From a virus (taxonomy: Duplodnaviria > Heunggongvirae > Uroviricota > Caudoviricetes): DNA of 45,258 bases. The stretch's first letter is position 1. The number at the start of each line of letters is the position of its first letter. Below the pieces are notes generated by a model, which saw only the letters and a list, made by a program, of their open reading frames with translations, ran no database searches and was not told where the DNA came from. Below are positions 6,247 to 41,321 of the stretch, piece after piece. The stretch is from IMG/VR virus record IMGVR_UViG_2663763326_000013, one strand, 5' to 3'. A program made the translations under genes and the position numbers.

Positions 6247-6939
6247 TTAATTGTGTCGCTTAAGGGTTTGTGACTGACTGATTAAGACCTTTCCAAAGAC
6301 CATAAACCGGTGTTCGTTTTCGCTGGTAATTCCCCATTCGCGGTAAATCTGATTATCAGAAATTACCAGCAGTTTATCAGGTATCATTTGCAGTCGTTTG
6401 ACGTAAATTTTATCATCAAAACCAAATACATATATACCATCCCCATCAAACTGATTGATACTGATATCAACGAAGATGAGATCTCCTGGCTCAATGGTTG
6501 GACACATACTGTCCCCACGAACGTTGATAACTTTAATGTGATTTGCTGGTCGTCCACCAAACATCGATACAGCATTATCAGTTCTGTATTCAATGGCATG
6601 AATCACATCAATGACATCACCGCCCTGGATAAGGCCATTTCCCGCACTGGCACTGACATCCAGCATTTCAATACGGAATACATCCTTCACCTGCGCAACA
6701 TCCTCACTAATACTGTTTTTACATACAGTATTACTTTTGAGGTCTGAGGTAAAGAGATCAGCAATATCAACACCTAAGCTCCTGGCAATATTACTCAGGG
6801 CTTGTTCAGTGAATTGTTTCTGCTTACCTGTTTCGAGGCGCGAGATATTCGCCGCATCCACTCCTATTGCTTCAGCGAGATCGGCGATTTTCATGTTCTT
6901 CGCCTGGCGAAGTTGTCTGACTCGATTTCCTATGTTCAT
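6247..6939 (-). CDS. cI: CI-like prophage repressor (HTH_XRE N-terminal domain + S24 LexA-like autopeptidase domain)
   Basis: 230 aa; N-terminal HTH (IADLAEAIGVDAANISRLETG) and C-terminal S24 peptidase region with Ser-Lys dyad context (RGDSMCPTI ... VKRL); divergent from cro-like gene. Confidence 0.8.
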   Translation of the reverse strand: MNIGNRVRQLRQAKNMKIADLAEAIGVDAANISRLETGKQKQFTEQALSNIARSLGVDIADLFTSDLKSNTVCKNSISEDVAQVKDVFRIEMLDVSASAGNGLIQGGDVIDVIHAIEYRTDNAVSMFGGRPANHIKVINVRGDSMCPTIEPGDLIFVDISINQFDGDGIYVFGFDDKIYVKRLQMIPDKLLVISDNQIYREWGITSENEHRFMVFGKVLISQSQTLKRHN

Positions 6940-7036
6940 GCGTTTATTACATTTCTTTATTGCGCGTTAAGCAAATCAACTTGCGCAAAATATTTGCGTG
7001 AAATAATATGCTTATCACGCAATATGTGGAGGTTAT
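6940..7036. promoter_or_regulatory. Immunity-region operator/promoter region (OR, pR/pRM)
   Basis: Divergent intergenic region containing TTGC-N7-GCAA (6960-6974) and a 7-bp inverted repeat TGCGTGA-N13-TCACGCA (6996-7022); GGAGG SD before the cro-like start. Confidence 0.5.
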
Positions 7037-7297
7037 ATGCAATCACCATTACGGAATGTGCGTAAGGCGCACGGATTTACTTTGCAGCATGTTGCTGCGG
7101 GCGTTCAGGTCAATCCAGCGACGCTGAGTCGTATTGAAAGACTGGAACAAATTCCATCTATCGATCTTGCAGAACGTCTGGCCAATTTTTTTAAGGGTGA
7201 AATCAGCGAAATGCAGATTCTTTATCCGGCACGTTTTCAATCTAGCCAAAACCAGAATGGGTTTAAACCACAGGAACAGGAGGTAAGCCGTGGGTAA
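7037..7297 (+). CDS. cro: Cro-like HTH regulator
   Basis: 86 aa; HTH (FTLQHVAAGVQVNPATLSRIE); first gene rightward of operators; strong SD. Confidence 0.65.
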   Translation: MQSPLRNVRKAHGFTLQHVAAGVQVNPATLSRIERLEQIPSIDLAERLANFFKGEISEMQILYPARFQSSQNQNGFKPQEQEVSRG

Positions 7298-7841
7298 GCA
7301 TCATTGGAAAGTGGAAAAACAACCTGAGTGGTACGTGAAAGCTGTCAGAAAAACTATCGCGGCATTGCCAGGGGGTTACGCTGAAGCTGCTGACTGGCTG
7401 GATGTAACAGAGAACGCTTTATTCAACCGCCTTCGTGCAGATGGCGATCAGATTTTCCCGTTGGGATGGGCAATGGTTTTACAGCGCGCGGCTGGCACTC
7501 ACTACATTGCGGATGCTGTCGCACAGTCTGCTGGTGGGGTGTTCGTATCGCTTCCTGAAATTGAGGAAGTAGAGAACGCCGATATAAACCAGCGCCTGCT
7601 GGAAGTCATCGAACAGATCGGGAATTACTCAAAGCAGATTCGTTCGGCAATCGAAGATGGGGTCGTGGAGCCACACGAGCAGACAGCAATTAATGATGAG
7701 TTGTATCTGTCAATTTCGAAGCTCCAGGAGCATGCAGCACTGGTCTACAAAATCTTCTGCGCTCCAGAAAAGAGTGACGCCCGCGAGTGTGCAGCTCCGG
7801 GCGTCGTGGCGTTTTGTGTCTGTGGAGAAACTAACGCATGA
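7290..7841 (+). CDS. CII-like regulatory protein (phage CII/CP76-type; could alternatively be YdaT-like)
   Basis: 183 aa, GTG start with AGGAGG 5 nt upstream; position after cro; family assignment by recall only. Confidence 0.4.
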   Translation: MGKHHWKVEKQPEWYVKAVRKTIAALPGGYAEAADWLDVTENALFNRLRADGDQIFPLGWAMVLQRAAGTHYIADAVAQSAGGVFVSLPEIEEVENADINQRLLEVIEQIGNYSKQIRSAIEDGVVEPHEQTAINDELYLSISKLQEHAALVYKIFCAPEKSDARECAAPGVVAFCVCGETNA

Positions 7842-8986
7842 ACAGTTTAACGGCAAATAACCGTTTGTCGCAACAGCTGGTGGTCAGTGTCGCTGAACAC
7901 CTGTTGTTACGGCATGAATGCAGATTACCAAATCACTTGGCTGTAAGTAACCACAGAGAACTTTACCTGACTGTGGGGGGCGAGTTGTGCAGGAACTTAA
8001 CCGCTGGTTTCGTGACGGAAGAGGGCTTTATGTCCATGTTATTCGTTGGGAGCCAGAAACACAGCGCGTTATCTATCTTCGCAAAGACTACCCGCATGAG
8101 TGCTTTAGTCCTTTGTGGAAATTCAGGCGTGATTTTGTTGAGTGTGAAGGACCACCAGCACATTGATTCTGCCATTCCGGGACGTTACACTGTTCAGGCA
8201 CCTTATAAAGCGGGTGCCGGGATTGGCGTCCTGGAATTGCATACGGCGACAATTGGCGCGTTAGCGTCTTTTTTGTTGCTACAACTCAGCTATACCCAAA
8301 TTATGGTGGGCTGGGTGGGGGCACCGAAAGGTGCGCCGGTTTCCGTATGCGCCGGTTACGCCAACCCTGCTCAGTTCACCACCAGCGAAATTGGCGTTTC
8401 CGGTGGTGGAAGTTATCCATTGCATACGGAGGCTGCCATCATGGCTACGATCCCTGCCTTAGTTCAACCTGAACTTTGCATTATTGCAGACAAAGTTGTT
8501 ACTTCTTCTCTGGCTGTTGCTAGTTATTTCGGCAAACAACACAAAAATGTCATTCAAAAAATTGCGTCTCTTGAATGCTCTGCCGAATTTACTGAGCTGA
8601 ATTTCCAGCTCAGTGAGTACATCGACGCATCAGGCCGCAAACTACCTTGCTATCAAATAACCCGCGACGGCTTTGCGTTTCTTGCTATGGGTTTCACGGG
8701 TAAACGTGCTGCCCAGTTCAAAGAGGCATATATCAATGCCTTTAACCAGATGGAGAAACAGCTTTCAAAACCCTCTGTACCGAGCGACGTTGCACATAAC
8801 GCCAGCGTTCTCTATTCCTACATTTCATCAATTCATCAGGTCTGGCTGCAGCAGCTTTATCCTATGTTGGCAAAAGCCGAATCTCCGCTGGCTGTTAGCT
8901 TGTATGACTATATTAATGATGCTTCGGCACTGGCCTGCCTCATAAATTTGTCGCTGAACCCTTCAGAGGTAAGGGGGCGCAAATGA
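7838..8986 (+). CDS. Rha-family phage regulatory protein (Rha domain in C-terminal half; likely internal start at 8441)
   Basis: Frame open 7838-8986. Residues from 8441 (MATIPALVQPELCIIADKVV...GKQHKNVIQKI...ITRDGFAFLAMGFTGKRAAQFKEAYINAF) match the Rha signature, with GGAGG 9 nt upstream of 8441. N-terminal 200 codons of uncertain reality. Confidence 0.4.
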   Translation: MNSLTANNRLSQQLVVSVAEHLLLRHECRLPNHLAVSNHRELYLTVGGELCRNLTAGFVTEEGFMSMLFVGSQKHSALSIFAKTTRMSALVLCGNSGVILLSVKDHQHIDSAIPGRYTVQAPYKAGAGIGVLELHTATIGALASFLLLQLSYTQIMVGWVGAPKGAPVSVCAGYANPAQFTTSEIGVSGGGSYPLHTEAAIMATIPALVQPELCIIADKVVTSSLAVASYFGKQHKNVIQKIASLECSAEFTELNFQLSEYIDASGRKLPCYQITRDGFAFLAMGFTGKRAAQFKEAYINAFNQMEKQLSKPSVPSDVAHNASVLYSYISSIHQVWLQQLYPMLAKAESPLAVSLYDYINDASALACLINLSLNPSEVRGRK

Positions 8987-9207
8987 TCCGGAATATTTTC
9001 AAACGGTTTACCAATCAGGCTTTCCGTTGTCCTCGTCCGGGTCAGTGGTACACCACACCCGCAGGGCATGTTCTACGTGTTAGCCTGGTTGACCGTGAAT
9101 GTCAGAAGGTGATTTGTGAACCGCTGGGCCGTAGTTACCGCGTCAGTATGCCGCTTATAGCCTTTCGCTCCGGAAAAAACATGAAGCATCTCGGAGGTGC
9201 TGCATGA
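8983..9207 (+). CDS. hypothetical small protein
   Basis: 74-aa ORF with ATGA stop/start overlaps on both sides, suggesting translational coupling. Confidence 0.35.
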   Translation: MIRNIFKRFTNQAFRCPRPGQWYTTPAGHVLRVSLVDRECQKVICEPLGRSYRVSMPLIAFRSGKNMKHLGGAA

Positions 9208-9626
9208 GTATGGAGCTGATGGTTAAAGCGATGAAAATTCGAGTGGGTAATCCATTGCGAAAACTGGTTCTGATCAAGCTGGCTGATAATGCCAGCGATC
9301 AGGGGGAGTGCTGGCCCAGCTACCAGCATATTGCTGACCAGTGCGAGATTAGCAAACGTTCTGTGATGAATCATATTGCGGCCCTTTGTGAGTCCGGGCT
9401 GGTAAAAAAAGTCACCCGGAAAGGTGAAAAAGGTAACTCAAGTAATATCTATCTCCTTCATCTGGATGGTGCAGGAGATTCACTAGGGGGTAGTGCAAAT
9501 AATTCACTATCTGGTGCAGCAAATTCACCAGGTAGTGCAGGAGTTGCACCAGGGGTAGTGCAGGAGATTCACCCAGAACCAGTCACTCTTTTGAACCAGT
9601 CAAAGAACCAGTCAATGAACCAATAG
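9204..9626 (+). CDS. Replication-initiator-like HTH protein (O-like N-terminal domain; possibly split from the next ORF)
   Basis: 140 aa; N-terminal HTH (SYQHIADQCEISKRSVMNHIAAL) typical of phage replication proteins; 3' third is encoded by iteron-like DNA repeats. Confidence 0.45.
   Translation: MSMELMVKAMKIRVGNPLRKLVLIKLADNASDQGECWPSYQHIADQCEISKRSVMNHIAALCESGLVKKVTRKGEKGNSSNIYLLHLDGAGDSLGGSANNSLSGAANSPGSAGVAPGVVQEIHPEPVTLLNQSKNQSMNQ
9469..9624. repeat. Iteron-like direct repeats (putative replication origin): five 15-bp GTGCA-N5-TNCAC units, then four tandem GAACCAGTCA-like units
   Basis: 15-mers start at 9469, 9492, 9515, 9535, 9558 (spacing 23, 23, 20, 23 bp), each with GTGCA/TGCAC-type internal symmetry; GAACCAGTCA repeats 9575-9624. 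Confidence 0.45.
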
Positions 9627-9652
9627 CTGTTGGTGCATCAGTTGATGAGTCC

Positions 9653-10021
9653 GTGCGAGTTCGTTCAAACCGACCGGAATACTCTCCGGAGTTTGAGCAG
9701 GCATGGCTGGCATATCCCAAACGTGCTGGTGGCAATTCAAAATCTGCAGCCTTCAAAGCCTGGAAAGCCCGTTTGAATGAGGGAGTAAACCCCGAAACCA
9801 TGCTGGAAGGTGTGAAACGCTACGCGGGCTGGGTATCTGCGATGGGTAACAGCGGCACACAATTTGTGAAACAGGCTGTCACGTTCTTTGGTCCGGATCG
9901 TCATTTCGAAGAATCCTGGGAAGTTCCTGCGGTATCTGCAGCCAGACGCGAGGACCCGTACTTCAAAGCCAGTTACGACAACGTGGACTACAGCCAGATC
10001 CCGGCAGGATTCAGGGGGTGA
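9653..10021 (+). CDS. hypothetical protein (possible C-terminal replication-initiator domain)
   Basis: 122-aa ORF 26 bp after the preceding ORF; function inferred from position only. Confidence 0.35.
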   Translation: MRVRSNRPEYSPEFEQAWLAYPKRAGGNSKSAAFKAWKARLNEGVNPETMLEGVKRYAGWVSAMGNSGTQFVKQAVTFFGPDRHFEESWEVPAVSAARREDPYFKASYDNVDYSQIPAGFRG

Positions 10022-10512
10022 TCATGAGTCTTTTGAATGAAGTTCAGAAATTCATTGAAGCCCATCCGGGGTGTACTTCCGGAGACATTGCGGATGCTTT
10101 TGCAGGTTACTCACGGCAGCGCGTTCTGCAGTCAGCAAGCAAGTTACGTCAGAGTGGGCGTGTGGCTCACCGTTGTGAAGGAGATACACGCAGACATTTC
10201 CCACGCCTGACTGAGAGAGCGCAGGAACCGGAACCACAACCAGTTCGAGAAACCAGACCTGTGCGCAATTTCTATGTCGGCACTAACGATCCACGGGTGA
10301 TTTTGTGCCTGACCCGCCAGGCTGAAGAACTGGAGTCCAGGGGCTTATACCGTCGTGCTGCAACCGTGTGGATGGCGGCATTCCGTGAAAGCCACTCCCA
10401 GCCAGAACGAAACAATTTTCTGGCGCGTCGTGAACGGTGTTTACGGAAAAGCAGTAAGCGGGCTGCATCAGGTGAAGAGTGGTATCTCTCAGGGAATTAC
10501 GTGGGGGCTTAA
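10018..10512 (+). CDS. PerC/ANR-like regulator with N-terminal winged-helix-like extension
   Basis: 164 aa; C-terminal LESRGLYRRAATVWMAAF...RRERCLRKS resembles the PerC-family core (GLWRRAA.RW...RR..C) by recall. Confidence 0.35.
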   Translation: MIMSLLNEVQKFIEAHPGCTSGDIADAFAGYSRQRVLQSASKLRQSGRVAHRCEGDTRRHFPRLTERAQEPEPQPVRETRPVRNFYVGTNDPRVILCLTRQAEELESRGLYRRAATVWMAAFRESHSQPERNNFLARRERCLRKSSKRAASGEEWYLSGNYVGA

Positions 10513-11165
10513 TGAGTAATAAATATTGCCAGGCGCTGGTGGAACTGCGGAACAAACCAGCCCATGAACTGAAGGAAGTGGGCGATCAGTGGCGCACGCC
10601 GGACAACATTTTCTGGGGAATTAACACCCTGTTTGGCCCGTTTGTTCTGGATCTGTTTACTGACGGTGATAACGCCAAATGTGCCGCGTATTACACGGCG
10701 GAAGATAACGCGCTGGCGCATGACTGGTCAGAACGTCTTGCGGAGCTTAAAGGTGCTGCCTTTGGTAATCCCCCATACAGCCGCGCCAGTCAGCATGAGG
10801 GGCAATACATCACCGGCATGCGTTACATCATGAAACATGCCAGTGCCATGCGTGATAAGGGCGGGCGCTATGTTTTCCTGATCAAAGCGGCCACCAGCGA
10901 AGTGTGGTGGCCGGAAGATGCAGATCATATTGCTTTTATTCGCGGGCGTATTGGTTTTGAACTGCCTGCCTGGTTTATACCGAAGGACGAGAAGCAGGTG
11001 CCGACAGGCGCTTTCTTCGCTGGTGCTATTGCTGTTTTCGACAAGACCTGGAAGGGACCGGCAATCAGCTACATCGGGCGTGATGAACTTGAGGCATGTG
11101 GTGAGGCGTTTCTGGCGCAGGTTCGCCAGCAGGCGGAAAAACTGGTCAGGGAGATGGCGGCATGA
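10512..11165 (+). CDS. Phage N6-adenine DNA methyltransferase (Dam-like, orphan)
   Basis: ORF 10479-11165; start set at ATG 10512 (TAATG overlap with upstream stop). Catalytic NPPY motif (FGNPPYS) present. Confidence 0.6.
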   Translation: MSNKYCQALVELRNKPAHELKEVGDQWRTPDNIFWGINTLFGPFVLDLFTDGDNAKCAAYYTAEDNALAHDWSERLAELKGAAFGNPPYSRASQHEGQYITGMRYIMKHASAMRDKGGRYVFLIKAATSEVWWPEDADHIAFIRGRIGFELPAWFIPKDEKQVPTGAFFAGAIAVFDKTWKGPAISYIGRDELEACGEAFLAQVRQQAEKLVREMAA

Positions 11166-18496: not shown

Positions 18497-18780
18497 CCAT
18501 TACAAAGCCTATCTACGGGTGGGTTTGATAATGGCTTATACCCTGCACGGGATAACTTAACTGATATCCCTTTTAACGGATAAACGGAGCCAACAATGGC
18601 AGAGAATGTCGGCATTATGGCAGTGAAATTTGGATAAATCGGGGATTAGAAAGATAGAGGCGAGCCGGTCAGGTAGAAATGAATCAGGCTCAAAGTGAAG
18701 CGGAAAAGGTCTGTGGCACAAACTGATGCTGCCATAATTACAGCCTGATGACTTGTGGAATGAAACATGTTGAACCTCCT

Positions 18781-19352
18781 TAATTGATGTGATTCGAGTG
18801 AGGAAGGCATTCTGTCCTTCTATAGTGTCCAGTAAATCAAACAGGAAGCTTGTCTCACGTGTGAGACAAGCCTCTCCATTAGCGAGTTGTATTGATTACA
18901 ACTCTTCAAAGAGTTCATTACTGGGTAGATGAAAATAGTTTCACGACGAATGGAGGAGACTATGTCGGTGGCTTCTTCATTGGAGTACATATGCTCCCTC
19001 GAACCTCAAAAGCATGCCGAGTTCGCGGCTGCCGCCATACCACGACTGACCCGTGTTGAAGCTCCGTAATTGATGTTATTCGAGTGAGGAAGGCATTCTG
19101 CCCCCCTATACTGTCCAGTAAATCAAACAGGAAACTTGCCTTACGCGTGAGACAAGCCTCTCCCATCAGTGAGTTGTATTGATCTCGACTCTTCAAAGAA
19201 TTCATTACTGGGTAGATGAAAATAGTTTCACGATAAATGGAGGAGGCTATGTTGGTGGCTTCTTCATTGGAGTACATATGCCCCCACGAACCCCAAAAAC
19301 CTGCCGTGTTCGCGGCTACCGCAATACCACCACAGATCCGTCAGGCTATTGC
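18781..19352. repeat. Tandem direct repeat, 2 copies of a ~286-bp unit (plus a degenerate partial copy upstream)
   Basis: Copy A 18781-19066 and copy B 19067-19352 align base-for-base with scattered substitutions. Each has a 22-bp palindrome (perfect in A: CTTGTCTCACGTGTGAGACAAG) and a GGAGGAG SD followed by a mini-ORF. Confidence 0.7.
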
Positions 19353-24119: not shown

Positions 24120-26078
24120 ATGCAGGCTGGTCACCAGAGTGACGCGGATATTTATATTTATGACGAGATTGGTTTCTGGGGTGTTACAGCGAAGCAGTTT
24201 ATCAGTGATCTGAATGCACTGGGCGATATCACCCACATTAATCTCCATATTAATTCACCGGGTGGCGATGTCTTTGAAGGCATCGCCATTTTTAATGCGC
24301 TGAAAACACATGGTGCGTCCATTACCGTTTATGTCGACGGTATGGCGGCGTCAATGGCGTCGGTCATTGCGATGGTGGGAAACCCGGTCATTATGCCGGA
24401 AAACACCTTCATGATGATTCATAAACCATTTGGCTTTACGGGCGGTAATGCGGAGGACATGCGCACCTATGCCGACCTGCTCGATAAAGTTGAGGCGGTT
24501 CTGTTACCCGCTTATGCACAGAAAACCGGGAAAACCACCGATGAAATTGCTGCCATGCTGGCGGATGAGACCTGGATGTCCGGTGCCGAATGTCTGGCAC
24601 ATGGATTTGCTGATCAGGTAACGCCAGCCGTTAAGGCAATGGCATGTATTCAGTCAAAACGTACAGAGGAATTTAAAAAGATGCCGGAATCCATTCGAAA
24701 CATGATTACTCCGCCACGCAACAGTGCTCCACGCGTACAGGATGATGAACCTGCAGCCTCCCGGACGCCAGTGCAGGCAGCAGCACCCGTGGTGGATGAA
24801 AACAGCATCCGTGCGCAGGTCCTGGCAGAGCAAAAAGCGCGTGTAAACGGTATTAATGATCTGTTTGCCATGTTTGGCGGGCGTTATCAGTCGCTGCAGG
24901 CTCAGTGTCTTGCCGATCCTGAATGTTCGCTGGAGCAGGCCCGCGAAAAGCTGTTGAACGAGATGGGGCGCGAGTCCACGCCATCCAATAAAAATACCCC
25001 GGCTCATATTTATGCCGGTAACGGTAATTTTGTGGGGGACGGGATCCGCCAGGCGCTGATGGCGCGTGCCGGATTTGAAAAAACCGAACGTGATAATGTC
25101 TACAACGGGATGACCCTGCGTGAATATGCCCGTATGTCACTGACTGAACGGGGTATTGGGGTTTCCAGTTATAACCCGATGCAGATGGTCGGTGCGGCGT
25201 TCACACACAGTACGTCTGACTTCGGTAATATTCTGCTGGATGTTGCGAACAAAGCCATTCTGCAGGGCTGGGAAGATGCCCCTGAAACCTATGAACAGTG
25301 GACGCGGAAAGGTCAGTTGTCTGATTTTAAAATTGCCCATCGTGTGGGTATGGGGGGCTTCAGTGCTCTGCGTCAGGTGCGTGAAGGGGCGGAATATAAA
25401 TACGTCACCACCGGAGATAAACAGGCCACTATTGCACTGGCGACCTATGGCGAGCTGTTCAGTATCACCCGTCAGGCCATTATCAATGATGATCTGAATA
25501 TGCTGACCGATGTCCCGATGAAACTGGGCCGTGCGGCGAAATCCACTATTGCCGATCTGGTTTATGCCATTCTGACGTCTAACCCGAAAATCTCCACAGA
25601 TAATGTAAGTCTGTTCGATAAAGCGAAACATGCAAACGTACTGGAGAGCGCTGCAATGGACGTGGCATCGCTGGATAAAGCCCGCCAGTTGATGCGCGTT
25701 CAGAAAGAGGGGGAGCGTCATCTGAATATTCGTCCTGCGTTCGTACTGGTACCGACGGCGATGGAGTCTGTTGCCAACCAGGTCATTCGCTCCTCAAGTG
25801 TCAAGGGGGCTGACATTAACGCCGGTATTATTAACCCGGTGAAAGATTTTGCGACCGTTATTGCAGAGCCTCGTCTTGATGATAACAGCCAGACCACCTT
25901 CTACCTGGCTGCGTCAAAAGGCTCCGATACGATTGAAGTGGCTTATCTCAACGGTGTGGATACGCCATATATTGATCAGATGGAGGGCTTCAGTGTGGAT
26001 GGCGTGACAACGAAAGTGCGTATTGACGCCGGTGTCGCGCCAGTTGATCACCGCGGTCTGGTGAAATGTACGGCGTAA
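24120..26078 (+). CDS. Prohead protease (ClpP/S49-like) fused to scaffold and major capsid domains
   Basis: ORF from 23859; start at ATG 24120 (MQAGHQSDADIYIYDEIGFWG). N-terminal ClpP-like protease signature (INSPGGDV, MAASMAS), central coiled-coil, C-terminal ~350 aa capsid-like. No separate capsid gene before the tail genes. Confidence 0.6.
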   Translation: MQAGHQSDADIYIYDEIGFWGVTAKQFISDLNALGDITHINLHINSPGGDVFEGIAIFNALKTHGASITVYVDGMAASMASVIAMVGNPVIMPENTFMMIHKPFGFTGGNAEDMRTYADLLDKVEAVLLPAYAQKTGKTTDEIAAMLADETWMSGAECLAHGFADQVTPAVKAMACIQSKRTEEFKKMPESIRNMITPPRNSAPRVQDDEPAASRTPVQAAAPVVDENSIRAQVLAEQKARVNGINDLFAMFGGRYQSLQAQCLADPECSLEQAREKLLNEMGRESTPSNKNTPAHIYAGNGNFVGDGIRQALMARAGFEKTERDNVYNGMTLREYARMSLTERGIGVSSYNPMQMVGAAFTHSTSDFGNILLDVANKAILQGWEDAPETYEQWTRKGQLSDFKIAHRVGMGGFSALRQVREGAEYKYVTTGDKQATIALATYGELFSITRQAIINDDLNMLTDVPMKLGRAAKSTIADLVYAILTSNPKISTDNVSLFDKAKHANVLESAAMDVASLDKARQLMRVQKEGERHLNIRPAFVLVPTAMESVANQVIRSSSVKGADINAGIINPVKDFATVIAEPRLDDNSQTTFYLAASKGSDTIEVAYLNGVDTPYIDQMEGFSVDGVTTKVRIDAGVAPVDHRGLVKCTA

Positions 26079-38924: not shown

Positions 38925-41321
38925 ATGGCAGCAGTAAAAATCTCAGGTGTGCTGAAAGATGGTGCGGGAAAACCAATACAGAACTGCACTATTCAACTGA
39001 AGGCAAAGCGTAACAGCACCACGGTACTGGTGAACACGGTGGCTTCTGAAAATCCGGATGAAGCCGGACGTTACAGCATGGATGTTGAGTATGGCCAGTA
39101 CAGCGTCACCCTGCTGGTTGAAGGTTTTCCGCCTTCACATGCCGGGACCATTACCGTCTATGAAGGCTCCAGACCAGGTACGCTGAATGATTTTCTCGGT
39201 GCCATGACGGAAGATGATGTCATGCCGGAGGCATTGCGTCGTTTTGAGGCAATGGTGGAAGAAGTGGCACGCAACGCCGAAGCCGCCTCTCAGAGCGCAG
39301 CGGCGGCAAAGAAATCCGAAACTGCAGCGGCATCATCAAAGAACGCGGCGAAAACCTCAGAAACGAATGCAGCTAATAGTGCACAGGCGGCAGCGGCCTC
39401 ACAGACTGCATCGGCAAACTCCGCGACAGCAGCCAAAAAATCAGAAACCAACGCGAAAAATAGCGAGACAGCCGCAAAGACGAGCGAAACCAACGCAAAG
39501 TCCAGCCAGACGGCAGCGAAAACCAGCGAAACGAATGCCAAAGCCAGTGAAACTGCGGCAAAAAACAGCCAGGTTGCAGCAGCCCAAAGCGAGAGCGCGG
39601 CAGCCGGTTCTGCGACTTCAGCAGCCGGATCAGCAACTGCTGCGGCTAACAGCCAGAAAGCTGCGAAGACGAGTGAAACTAACGCAAAGTCCAGCCAGAC
39701 AGCAGCGAAGACCAGCGAAACGAATGCCAAAGCCAGCGAAACTGCGGCGAAAAGTAGTCAGGCTGCAGCAGCCGAAAGCGAGAGTGCTGCAGCTGGTTCT
39801 GCAAGTGCGGCGGCTGCTTCTGCCACTGCATCAGCTAACAGTCAAAAAGCAGCCAAAACCAGTGAAACCAACGCAAAGGCGAGCGAGACTGCGGCGGCGA
39901 ACTCGGCGCAAGCATCGGCAGCAAGCCAGACAGCAGCTAAAGCAAGTGAAGACGCAGCCAGAGAGTATGCAAGCCAGGCAGCGGAGCCGTATAAACAAGT
40001 TTTGCAGCCGTTGCCCGATGTGTGGATACCGTTTAATGAATCACTGGATATGATTACTGGTTTCGCTCCTGGTTATAAAAAAGTAACTATCGGTGATGAT
40101 GTTATTACTTTTCCATCAGAGAAGGTTGTATCTTTCACTCGCTCCACTTCTGCAACGTATATAAACAAATCAGGTTCATTTGCTTTTGCAGAAATTAACG
40201 AGCCGCGCTTTGAAAAGGAAGGTTTATTAATTGAAGGTCAGAGGACAAATACATTTACTAATAGTAACAATCCTTCATTATGGAATTATGACGACAAGAA
40301 TATAGAAATAACCACATCGGTTGATGAATATGGTTTTAAATATGGTTTGTTCAATGTAAAGGAAACATCAACTACTGAAAGGGCGACGATAATATCTACT
40401 GGATACAGTAGGGTTATTGATGTTGCTGCAAATGAATCTGTTACTTTGTCCTGTAGGGTTAAGAAGATAAATGGAGAAGGTATTATAACGTTAAGACCCA
40501 GAATATCTTTCGTTAACGATGACGGCACAAGCAACACGCTGGTAGCTGGTTCCTACATAGATTGCGAAACTGGTGATGTTTTAGGTTTTTCTGGTGGGGA
40601 TGCTGTAAATCATGTCATATACAGAGAAGCTAACGGATGGTTACGCGTCGAATTTACATATAAATCACCAGAAGCAAAAAGCATGTATGGGCGCTTTGAA
40701 ATGGGAGCAGATAAAAGGGCGATCAAAAAAGGCGATCAGATAATGTTTACTACGCCGCAATTTGAAAAAGGATCGTGTGCATCATCATTTATCGTTACAT
40801 CAGATGTGGCAGTTACACGGGCTAGTGACGTGGTAATAATGCCAATAAGACTGAACTGGTCAACACCTCCGTTAAGCGTTCTTATGGAAGTTAATATCAA
40901 CTGGGACAAAATGCCAAACAGTGAAGGTTCAGCAAGGCTTCTTAACGTGTCAATAACTGGCGCAACAACGGATGTTGCTGATGAAAGTTATATGTATTTT
41001 GGTTTTACCTCTGGAGGCGCGCGCTCAATTATAACTAACGGAAAAGGAACAAAGACCGAGTATAAAGCCTACTGTAACAGGACAACCCGCAGGTTTATTG
41101 CTGGGTTTAAGTTTACAGAGCAGAAAGAATTGCGTGCTGTTATAAACGGTAACTTTGGCGCTGTTGGTGTATCACAACACACAAGACAACGTTATACAGA
41201 AGGGCCAATAAATATAGGCGGTCAATCAATATCAGGTAACAGGCATTTATTTGGACACGTGCGCAATTTACGTATCTGGCATAAGGAACTGACAGATGCA
41301 CAAATGGGAGAAAGAATATAA
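38925..41321 (+). CDS. stf: Side tail fibre protein (lambda Stf-like N-terminus, repetitive Ala/Ser/Thr-rich shaft, distinct lectin-like C-terminal domain)
   Basis: ORF from 38919; ATG 38925 has GGAG 6 nt upstream. N-terminus MAAVKISGVLKDGAGKPIQNCTIQLKAKRNSTTVLVNTVASENPDEAGRYSMDVEYGQYSV matches lambda Stf; C-terminal ~400 aa is AT-rich and ends with a LamG-like pattern. Confidence 0.75.
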   Translation: MAAVKISGVLKDGAGKPIQNCTIQLKAKRNSTTVLVNTVASENPDEAGRYSMDVEYGQYSVTLLVEGFPPSHAGTITVYEGSRPGTLNDFLGAMTEDDVMPEALRRFEAMVEEVARNAEAASQSAAAAKKSETAAASSKNAAKTSETNAANSAQAAAASQTASANSATAAKKSETNAKNSETAAKTSETNAKSSQTAAKTSETNAKASETAAKNSQVAAAQSESAAAGSATSAAGSATAAANSQKAAKTSETNAKSSQTAAKTSETNAKASETAAKSSQAAAAESESAAAGSASAAAASATASANSQKAAKTSETNAKASETAAANSAQASAASQTAAKASEDAAREYASQAAEPYKQVLQPLPDVWIPFNESLDMITGFAPGYKKVTIGDDVITFPSEKVVSFTRSTSATYINKSGSFAFAEINEPRFEKEGLLIEGQRTNTFTNSNNPSLWNYDDKNIEITTSVDEYGFKYGLFNVKETSTTERATIISTGYSRVIDVAANESVTLSCRVKKINGEGIITLRPRISFVNDDGTSNTLVAGSYIDCETGDVLGFSGGDAVNHVIYREANGWLRVEFTYKSPEAKSMYGRFEMGADKRAIKKGDQIMFTTPQFEKGSCASSFIVTSDVAVTRASDVVIMPIRLNWSTPPLSVLMEVNINWDKMPNSEGSARLLNVSITGATTDVADESYMYFGFTSGGARSIITNGKGTKTEYKAYCNRTTRRFIAGFKFTEQKELRAVINGNFGAVGVSQHTRQRYTEGPINIGGQSISGNRHLFGHVRNLRIWHKELTDAQMGERI
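39471..39900 (+). repeat. In-frame tandem ~192-bp repeats (about 2.3 copies) within the tail fibre shaft
   Basis: Nucleotide units beginning about 39471 and 39663 encode near-identical ~64-aa blocks (AKTSETNAKSSQTAAKTSETNAKASETAAK...ANSQKA); generates spurious ORFs on other frames and strand. Confidence 0.6.

Follow-up and report, generated by a model that had tools for sequence, protein, structure and literature searches.

Phage lambda has, beside the iterons of its replication origin, an A+T-rich stretch of 40 base pairs (bp). In the origins of iteron plasmids (RepA, pi, TrfA), direct initiator-binding repeats lie beside a repeated element for opening and helicase loading, and the host DnaB is used without a plasmid-borne loader. 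In lambda, P22 and L the origin, with iterons that are specific to the phage, is inside the initiator gene (bioRxiv 10.1101/2020.10.05.325894), which is gene O in lambda and gene 18 in both P22 and L, and there it separates the N-terminal DNA-binding domain from the C-terminal partner-binding domain. The 'Eru6' phages have been defined by a Rha/Ash and an HTH_36 protein next to cI, and nothing is known of the replication of Eru phages, as stated in the same paper (PMC8951638). The IMG/VR virus record IMGVR_UViG_2663763326_000013, a stretch of 45,258 nucleotides (nt) that is referred to in its full length as the window, contains at 9204-10021 what is likely to be a single replication-initiator gene of an SfV/mEp460/'Eru6'-type lambdoid prophage, with an origin in the part coding for the linker, as in lambda between the two domains, and inactivated in this copy by the loss of a G. 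Origins of the lambda O kind are known; that of this family is uncharacterised.

The split initiator gene

A sequence-only reading of the window had placed two open reading frames (ORFs) here, 9204-9626 (140 amino acids, aa) and 9653-10021 (122 aa), and their ends are as it gave them. It had also taken the pair to be an alternative organisation with two separate ORFs, which is not supported, in view of a 1-nt deletion and of intact 819-nt homologues. In Escherichia coli R11, in Shigella phage SfV (orf39, 'replication protein') and in phage mEp460 (gp43) the two ORFs are fused as one gene of 819 nt and 272 aa. With positions 9100-10100 (1001 nt) as the query, the best matches in complete E. coli genomes and phages all span 1002 nt, and an alignment of 262 columns with R11, SfV and mEp460 has a single difference, GGGG in the window against GGGGG. 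On this comparison the two ORFs are one initiator gene (9204..10021, + strand; SfV orf39 / mEp460 gp43 / WP_000061529.1 type) that is broken by the loss of a single G and is a pseudogene here through a -1 frameshift. The split is present because 1 nt has been deleted from a G5 run. The remaining G4 run, at 9552..9555, is in the spacer between the fourth and fifth iterons, which in the homologues reads CAGGGGGTA. Beyond this point the last 23 residues of the N-terminal fragment are out of frame and end at a premature TAG stop (9624..9626, + strand).

One of the 927 records that match a 111-nt query around the run is identical to the G4 sequence of the window. Among the 924 complete E. coli genomes that have the region, the identical 111-mer is found in one, RM8082, where the gene is annotated as a frameshifted pseudogene by the Prokaryotic Genome Annotation Pipeline (PGAP). 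With an identity of only about 95% between the RM8082 prophage and the window, the G4 events in the two are probably independent. At least 24 contigs, which come from different samples and vary in neighbouring genes and prophage background, encode the exact 140-aa frameshift product, which would mean that the G4 allele recurs. A homologue in Pseudomonas bharatica (L042) has the same G5-to-G4 loss in the same spacer and a truncated ORF; over the loci compared, the consensus of this last spacer is YAGGGGGTR.

The alternative that survives best, while still rather unlikely, is that the missing G is a homopolymer error of sequencing or assembly and that the organism has an intact 272-aa gene. The missing G is the sole insertion or deletion against R11 in 45 kb and is inside a G run. 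In three assemblies with the same allele (L213, L215, L216) the neighbouring Dam gene is also in two pieces, as is typical of error-prone long reads, and part of the recurrence may therefore be homopolymer sequencing error. Against this, the neighbouring genes are otherwise intact in four further G4 assemblies (L208, L209, L211, L212), the spread of the 140-aa product over several backgrounds speaks for a real allele, and the same change is seen in RM8082 and in P. bharatica. For the window itself, a real pseudogene and a homopolymer error would each fit the sequence. More generally, the G5-to-G4 loss in unrelated backgrounds (L042; RM8082, which is L004; L207-L216) may mark a slippage hot spot that inactivates the initiator, or it may be a recurrent sequencing error.

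Residues 3-271 of the intact protein match PHROG 270, 'replication initiation protein' (E 1.7e-88), and the 90%-identity cluster around this protein contains 2852 sequences. The N-terminal ORF has a Pfam match to HTH_36 (PF13730; 45.7 bits, cut-off 25, E 5.5e-12) at residues 17-67. Phage_rep_O (PF04492), the N-terminal domain of lambda O, is not among its hits at E <= 0.01, nor is there a Rep_3-type Pfam match, and the score for DnaD_N (PF21984), 26.2 bits, is under the cut-off of 27; Foldseek finds a weak match to the DnaD-N structure 2v79 (E 0.03). In the AlphaFold model, residues 1-90 (9204..9473, + strand) form a predicted winged-helix DNA-binding domain, with helices at 3-11, 17-28, 40-47 and 51-64, a beta-hairpin wing at 67-85 and block-mean pLDDT of 70-93; the recognition helix would be at about residues 50-58 (SKRSVMNHI). 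Residues 91-157, encoded by the iterons and the core element described below, are predicted to be disordered (pLDDT <50) and separate the confident winged helix from a helical C-terminal domain at residues 158-272. Alleles of 242-302 aa differ in the number of linker units of 7-8 residues, which is the number of iterons.

The repeat array and its core element

The five 15-bp units noted from the sequence alone are present. A search of the whole window for GTGCA-N5-TNCAC (pattern GTGCANNNNNTNCAC) gives five matches on the + strand and none outside 9469-9572. They are dyad-symmetric 15-mers, GTGCA-N5-TKCAC, each an imperfect palindrome with the half-sites GTGCA and GTGMA: GTGCAGGAGATTCAC at 9469..9483, GTGCAAATAATTCAC at 9493..9507, GTGCAGCAAATTCAC at 9514..9528, GTGCAGGAGTTGCAC at 9535..9549, which matches the pattern on both strands, and GTGCAGGAGATTCAC again at 9558..9572. 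Dinucleotide-preserving shuffles have a mean of 0.62 matches, and 6 matches were reached in 0 of 100. The earlier unit starts hold for 9469, 9535 and 9558, while 9492 and 9515 are each off by one (9493 and 9514). The '23-bp spacing' given for most of the units is inaccurate, as the start-to-start distances are 24, 21, 21 and 23 nt; in the intact homologues they are 24, 21, 21 and 24.

The iterons are followed directly by the core element (9573..9621), made up of CCAGAACCAGTCACTCTTTTGAACCAGTCAAAGAACC and a further GAACCAGTCAATGAACC, which is the proposed site of unwinding and helicase loading. Inside it are copies of GAACCAGTCA. Of the four tandem 10-12-mers reported earlier, three are exact copies of GAACCAGTCA, starting at 9576, 9593 and 9605, and the fourth (GAACCAATAG, 9617-9626) is degenerate. 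Tandem Repeats Finder picks up both the iterons and the GAACCAGTCA repeats. There are no DnaA boxes near the array, TTWTNCACA being found in the window only at 24512 and 35598, and a promoter and terminator scan of 6900-10600 gave nothing above chance near it.

The array was compared over 81 genome loci, from a set of 80 loci encoding relatives of the intact protein with one genome per species (Enterobacterales, Pseudomonas, Aeromonas, Shewanella, Marinomonas and others), and over a second set of 80 independently retrieved viral loci that were found by searching with the 37-nt element described below. In the genome loci a relaxed motif, GTG.A-N5-T.CAC, occurs 242 times at +200 to +560 of the gene and twice elsewhere (511 kb, both strands). 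Spacings between iterons are 21 nt (61 cases), 22 nt (26), 23 nt (28) and 24 nt (59), which is about two helical turns. Loci without the motif of the window, class A, have other repeats in the same place, and these fall into class B (GGGGC...GCCCC-like), class C (GTAGGCC...AGCAC) and class D (ATGCC...GCAC). The four classes pair with four types of recognition helix, S[KR]RSV[MI]NHI for class A, [GSA]RSTVK.H[IV]R for B, DRSTVRKHIK for C and CSKSAVR.HI for D, in the genome loci, and the pairing is reproduced in the viral loci. This covariation is the pattern that would be expected if the helix reads the repeats. The earlier proposal of an origin-like iteron array inside a replication-initiator gene, as in lambda O, is thus backed by both sets of loci, and the repeats are very probably a replication origin that lies in the gene of its initiator. 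Of what that reading named as its refutation, one half, homologues with an uninterrupted single ORF, is seen; the other half, a lack of iteron conservation, is not, as the iterons are conserved.

From E. coli to Pseudomonas and Shewanella, the last iteron is directly followed by a 37-nt element, CCAGAACCAGTCACTCTTTTGAACCAGTCAATGAACC. In about 75 of the 81 loci 30-37 of its 37 nt are identical, regardless of iteron class, C-terminal domain or host G+C. When only those codons are counted whose amino acid equals that of the E. coli reference, third bases are identical in 91.3% of cases in the element (697/763) as against 42.8% in the N-terminal domain (2057/4804), and at a further 251 codons of the element the amino acid differs. 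It is as DNA that the 37-nt element is conserved. When viral contigs were searched in reverse, with nothing but the element as the query, 80 loci were obtained, with at least 120 matched stretches. The ORF that contains the element also has the conserved N-terminal motif in 74 of these loci; in four of the remainder it is truncated where the locus ends, and the last two have a short upstream ORF that lacks the motif. In Pseudomonas loci the element is a local dip in G+C (0.43-0.52, flanks 0.60-0.72), and in E. coli it is unremarkable in this respect.

Part of the protein is conserved as well. Residues 1-48 of the initiator (window 9204-9347; MSMELMVKAMK.KVGNPLRKLVL.KLADNASDQGECWPSYQHIADQCEI) are almost invariant from E. 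coli to Shewanella and in all four iteron classes. They are far better conserved than the rest of the protein, in parallel with the invariant 37-nt element of the DNA. In the public proteins P0025, P0027, P0039 and P0047-P0050 the N-terminal part of the initiator is joined to another domain, such as PerC, Dam or RusA, and these proteins look like deletion or frameshift products of decaying prophages.

It is improbable that the iterons and the 37-nt element are instead operator or incompatibility sites for autoregulation, with the element serving as a recombinational junction for module exchange and not as an origin. It would account for the position of the element, which is precisely at the joint between the N-terminal module and C-terminal domains of at least 13 different kinds, and the element is not markedly A+T-rich. 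However, had the homology been left by recent exchange, synonymous sites would not still be 91% identical beside an N-terminal domain that is saturated at 43%; in addition, both annotation and profiles make the family a replication initiator, and helicase and loader genes follow in most loci. The role of an origin and those of an operator or junction are, moreover, not mutually exclusive.

An explanation at the level of the peptide is far less credible still. The repeats would then merely reflect a low-complexity linker of GGSAGDSP-like units, under protein-level selection or drift, and would have no role as DNA. Such a linker would agree with the E. coli units, which are multiples of 3 nt and encode a segment rich in Gly, Ser, Ala and Pro, and with a copy number that varies as in ordinary tandem repeats. 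The reading frames speak against it. Of the 242 iterons, 207 are read in one frame and 35 in another. In Pseudomonas, a spacing of 23 and then 22 nt shifts the second iteron into another frame and the DNA motif is kept, from which it follows that the conserved thing is the DNA and not the peptide. Three Shewanella loci (L080, L082 and L083) have a last spacer of 8 nt (C4) and not 9, and a stretch of 10 nt instead of 12 within the element. The ORFs are still open (251-262 aa) and the DNA element is retained despite the offset. The shortened stretch appears to compensate for the spacer, which would put both the last iteron and the first copy of GAACCAGTCA into another frame. These 8-nt spacers suggest that the 23-nt spacing of the window is tolerated in cis. 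The third codon positions of the element, conserved even as amino acids change, and the motif class, which follows the recognition helix of the DNA-binding domain, are also at odds with selection on a linker peptide.

C-terminal domains, helicase loaders and the proposed initiation

The C-terminal domain of the initiator is of several types, each with its own gene downstream. The type of the window, CT1, is followed in 29 of 33 loci by a DnaC-like AAA+ gene (Pfam IstB_IS21) and then a DnaB-like helicase gene. Downstream of CT2 there is a 268-aa Pseudomonas protein (12 of 17 loci), downstream of CT3 a true lambda-P homologue (7 of 9 loci; Pfam Phage_lambda_P match, 1.6e-66) and downstream of CT4 a 174-aa Aeromonas protein (3 of 5 loci). 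As the type of the C-terminal domain tracks the next gene, the domain behaves like the P-binding domain of lambda O. It would be encoded in the window by the second ORF (9653..10021, + strand), which covers residues 151-272 of the intact protein and may be a partner-recruitment domain.

The sequence-only reading saw no helicase-loader gene, and for the window this is correct: tblastn finds no DnaC-, DnaB- or lambda-P-like gene in it, and there is no helicase, primase or loader in the annotation of the 99.993%-identical prophage of E. coli R11. The initiator is directly followed by DnaC-like and DnaB-like genes in its closest relatives outside E. coli, those of Klebsiella and Raoultella (75% identical) and of Citrobacter (70%). 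The pair is absent only in the E. coli SfV type and in one Leclercia locus, where genes for PerC, Dam and LexA-like proteins are found instead. By this distribution the absence of a loader in the window is a derived state, the pair having been lost in the E. coli SfV/Eru6 type. DnaC and DnaB are both present in the E. coli host, and from the loss of the phage pair we infer that the SfV/Eru6 type uses them. To our knowledge, pseudomonads are without DnaC, going by the distribution of DciA and DnaC.

A mechanism can be proposed by analogy with lambda O and from the covariation described above. The winged helix (HTH_36) would bind as dimers to the five dyad-symmetric iterons, which follow one another at about two helical turns, and the nucleoprotein complex so formed would destabilise the conserved GAACCAGTCA-repeat element beside them. 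A DnaC-type loader with DnaB helicase would then be recruited through the C-terminal domain; in the E. coli SfV type, where the phage pair is lost, these would presumably be those of the host. In the G4 allele the gene would be cut into a 140-aa DNA-binding fragment and a C-terminal ORF that is not expressed or is poorly expressed. With this frameshift the prophage should not be able to initiate replication by itself, except where the initiator is provided by another phage in the same cell that belongs to its iteron class. It would thus be expected to be replication-defective, inducible but not amplified, with an origin that is still active in cis.

Several points weigh against this reading. 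The G could be missing by sequencing error, and the use of host DnaC and DnaB is argued from the absence of phage genes. The element, whose opening or loading role is suggested by its position and conservation, is 46% G+C and only mildly A+T-rich, unlike classical unwinding elements. The C-terminal domain has only moderate AlphaFold confidence and no match in Pfam or NCBIfam. Literature searches with the repeat sequences and for HTH_36 origins, which did not take in the 2002 SfV genome paper, found no paper on the repeats and no experimental work on the origin. In addition, no relative of solved structure was found for the C-terminal domain by sequence, and Foldseek against the PDB gave weak generic winged-helix hits for the N-terminal domain only.

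The proposed origin has much in common with that of lambda: four to six dyad-symmetric repeats about 20 bp apart, an iteron sequence and DNA-binding specificity that vary between phages, and, in the relatives, a C-terminal domain that matches the downstream loader, which after some initiators is a true lambda-P homologue. It is unlike lambda in that the DNA-binding domain is HTH_36 and not Phage_rep_O, in that the element adjacent to the iterons is the conserved GAACCAGTCA repeat, at the G+C given above, and in that the E. coli type of the window is without any loader gene. With iteron plasmids it shares directly repeated putative initiator sites next to a repeated element of proposed opening and helicase loading, and a presumed reliance on the host DnaB without a loader of its own. 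It differs from them in having one winged-helix domain only, with no Rep_3-type match, iterons inside a coding sequence and no nearby DnaA box.

A wider reading is quite possible and is put forward tentatively, that a large family of prophage origins in gammaproteobacteria has the 37-nt GAACCAGTCA-repeat element as its universal and hitherto undescribed core, a fixed site of opening and helicase loading around which cassettes of iterons and recognition helix, and helicase-recruitment domains, are swapped. The element would then be recognised by initiator residues 1-48 or by a conserved host factor, and in the E. coli SfV/Eru6 type the system would be pared down to a single protein that takes over the host DnaC and DnaB.

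That the two ORFs of the window might be a functional pair of genes, or be joined by programmed frameshifting, is barely tenable: the halves do match separate domains and the allele recurs in public assemblies, but the only start codon of the second ORF is a GTG, which is 26 nt beyond the stop of the first and without a clear ribosome-binding site, the slippery heptamer is absent, and the intact allele is overwhelmingly the norm, both in the 927 matching records and in the cluster around the 272-aa protein, with the G4 allele called a pseudogene by PGAP. Programmed frameshifting was considered and rejected on these grounds.

The second ORF matches the C-terminal parts of PHROGs 26426, 270, 3729 and 1701. 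It was also considered as a copy of yfdO from the CPS-53 prophage of E. coli K-12, since YfdO is likewise 122 aa, and this was rejected, as only the tail from window position 9946 onward is common to the two. The shared part is the last 25 or so codons and the downstream yfdN, the match beginning at 9946 with 97.8% identity (window 9946-10778; L086 6122-6954). YfdO is a remnant of a different type of initiator, with another C-terminal domain and other upstream repeats (TCTGACCCGTCAAAA-like). There is thus a mosaic joint inside the initiator gene at 9946, and the shared tail of about 25 codons is EDPYFKASYDNVDYSQIPAGFRG; where the DnaC-like and DnaB-like pair is lacking, these last codons differ too. 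The tail ...IPAGFRG also ends an unrelated type of C-terminal domain (L024), and this short motif might be tied to the loader-less arrangement.

The prophage and its relatives

A single lambdoid prophage, adjacent to dusA, makes up the window (1-45258); it has an integrase gene near its right end and a gene for a YafO-family toxin at the left. The whole of it is 99.993% identical to NZ_CP107155.1 of E. coli R11 (3145168-3190426), from which it differs by the missing G and by two single-nucleotide polymorphisms, near 40655 (T for G) and 43566 (T for C).

The replication region is 98.4-99% identical at the DNA level to that of SfV orf39, mEp460 gp43 and the Shiga-toxin 'Eru6' phages, and these have the same gene order as the window: cI, cro, cII-like, Rha/Ash, a small ORF, the HTH_36 gene, PerC and Dam. 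Their copies are intact 272-aa genes; that of the window is frameshifted. Identity with the Eru6 representative Stx2a_WGPS2 (AP012537.1) is 98.4% over the 1-kb region. By this comparison, and with Ash and Rha domains found by Pfam in the window ORF 7838-8986, the module corresponds to the 'Eru6' replication unit.

The replication module is very common in E. coli as well as being that of the 'Eru6' Shiga-toxin phages. Indeed, 2721 of 5426 complete E. coli genomes have a megablast match to the 1-kb region, in 881 of them over at least 80% of its length. The comparison gives a map that can be tested, with the 15-mers that would be bound, the helix that would set specificity, the putative opening site and the predicted dependence on host DnaC and DnaB. 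For specialists, the conserved GAACCAGTCA core, the pairing of iteron with helix and the pairing of C-terminal domain with loader are the noteworthy features.

The ORF at 7838-8986 (382 aa), in which Pfam finds the Ash and Rha domains, is upstream of a small ORF (8983-9207, PHROG 1153) and of the initiator; its relatives include Ash-only versions (278 aa) and versions with Ash plus Rha. In the lysis region, at 18768-19341, there are two segments of about 288 nt that are 88.5% identical to each other.

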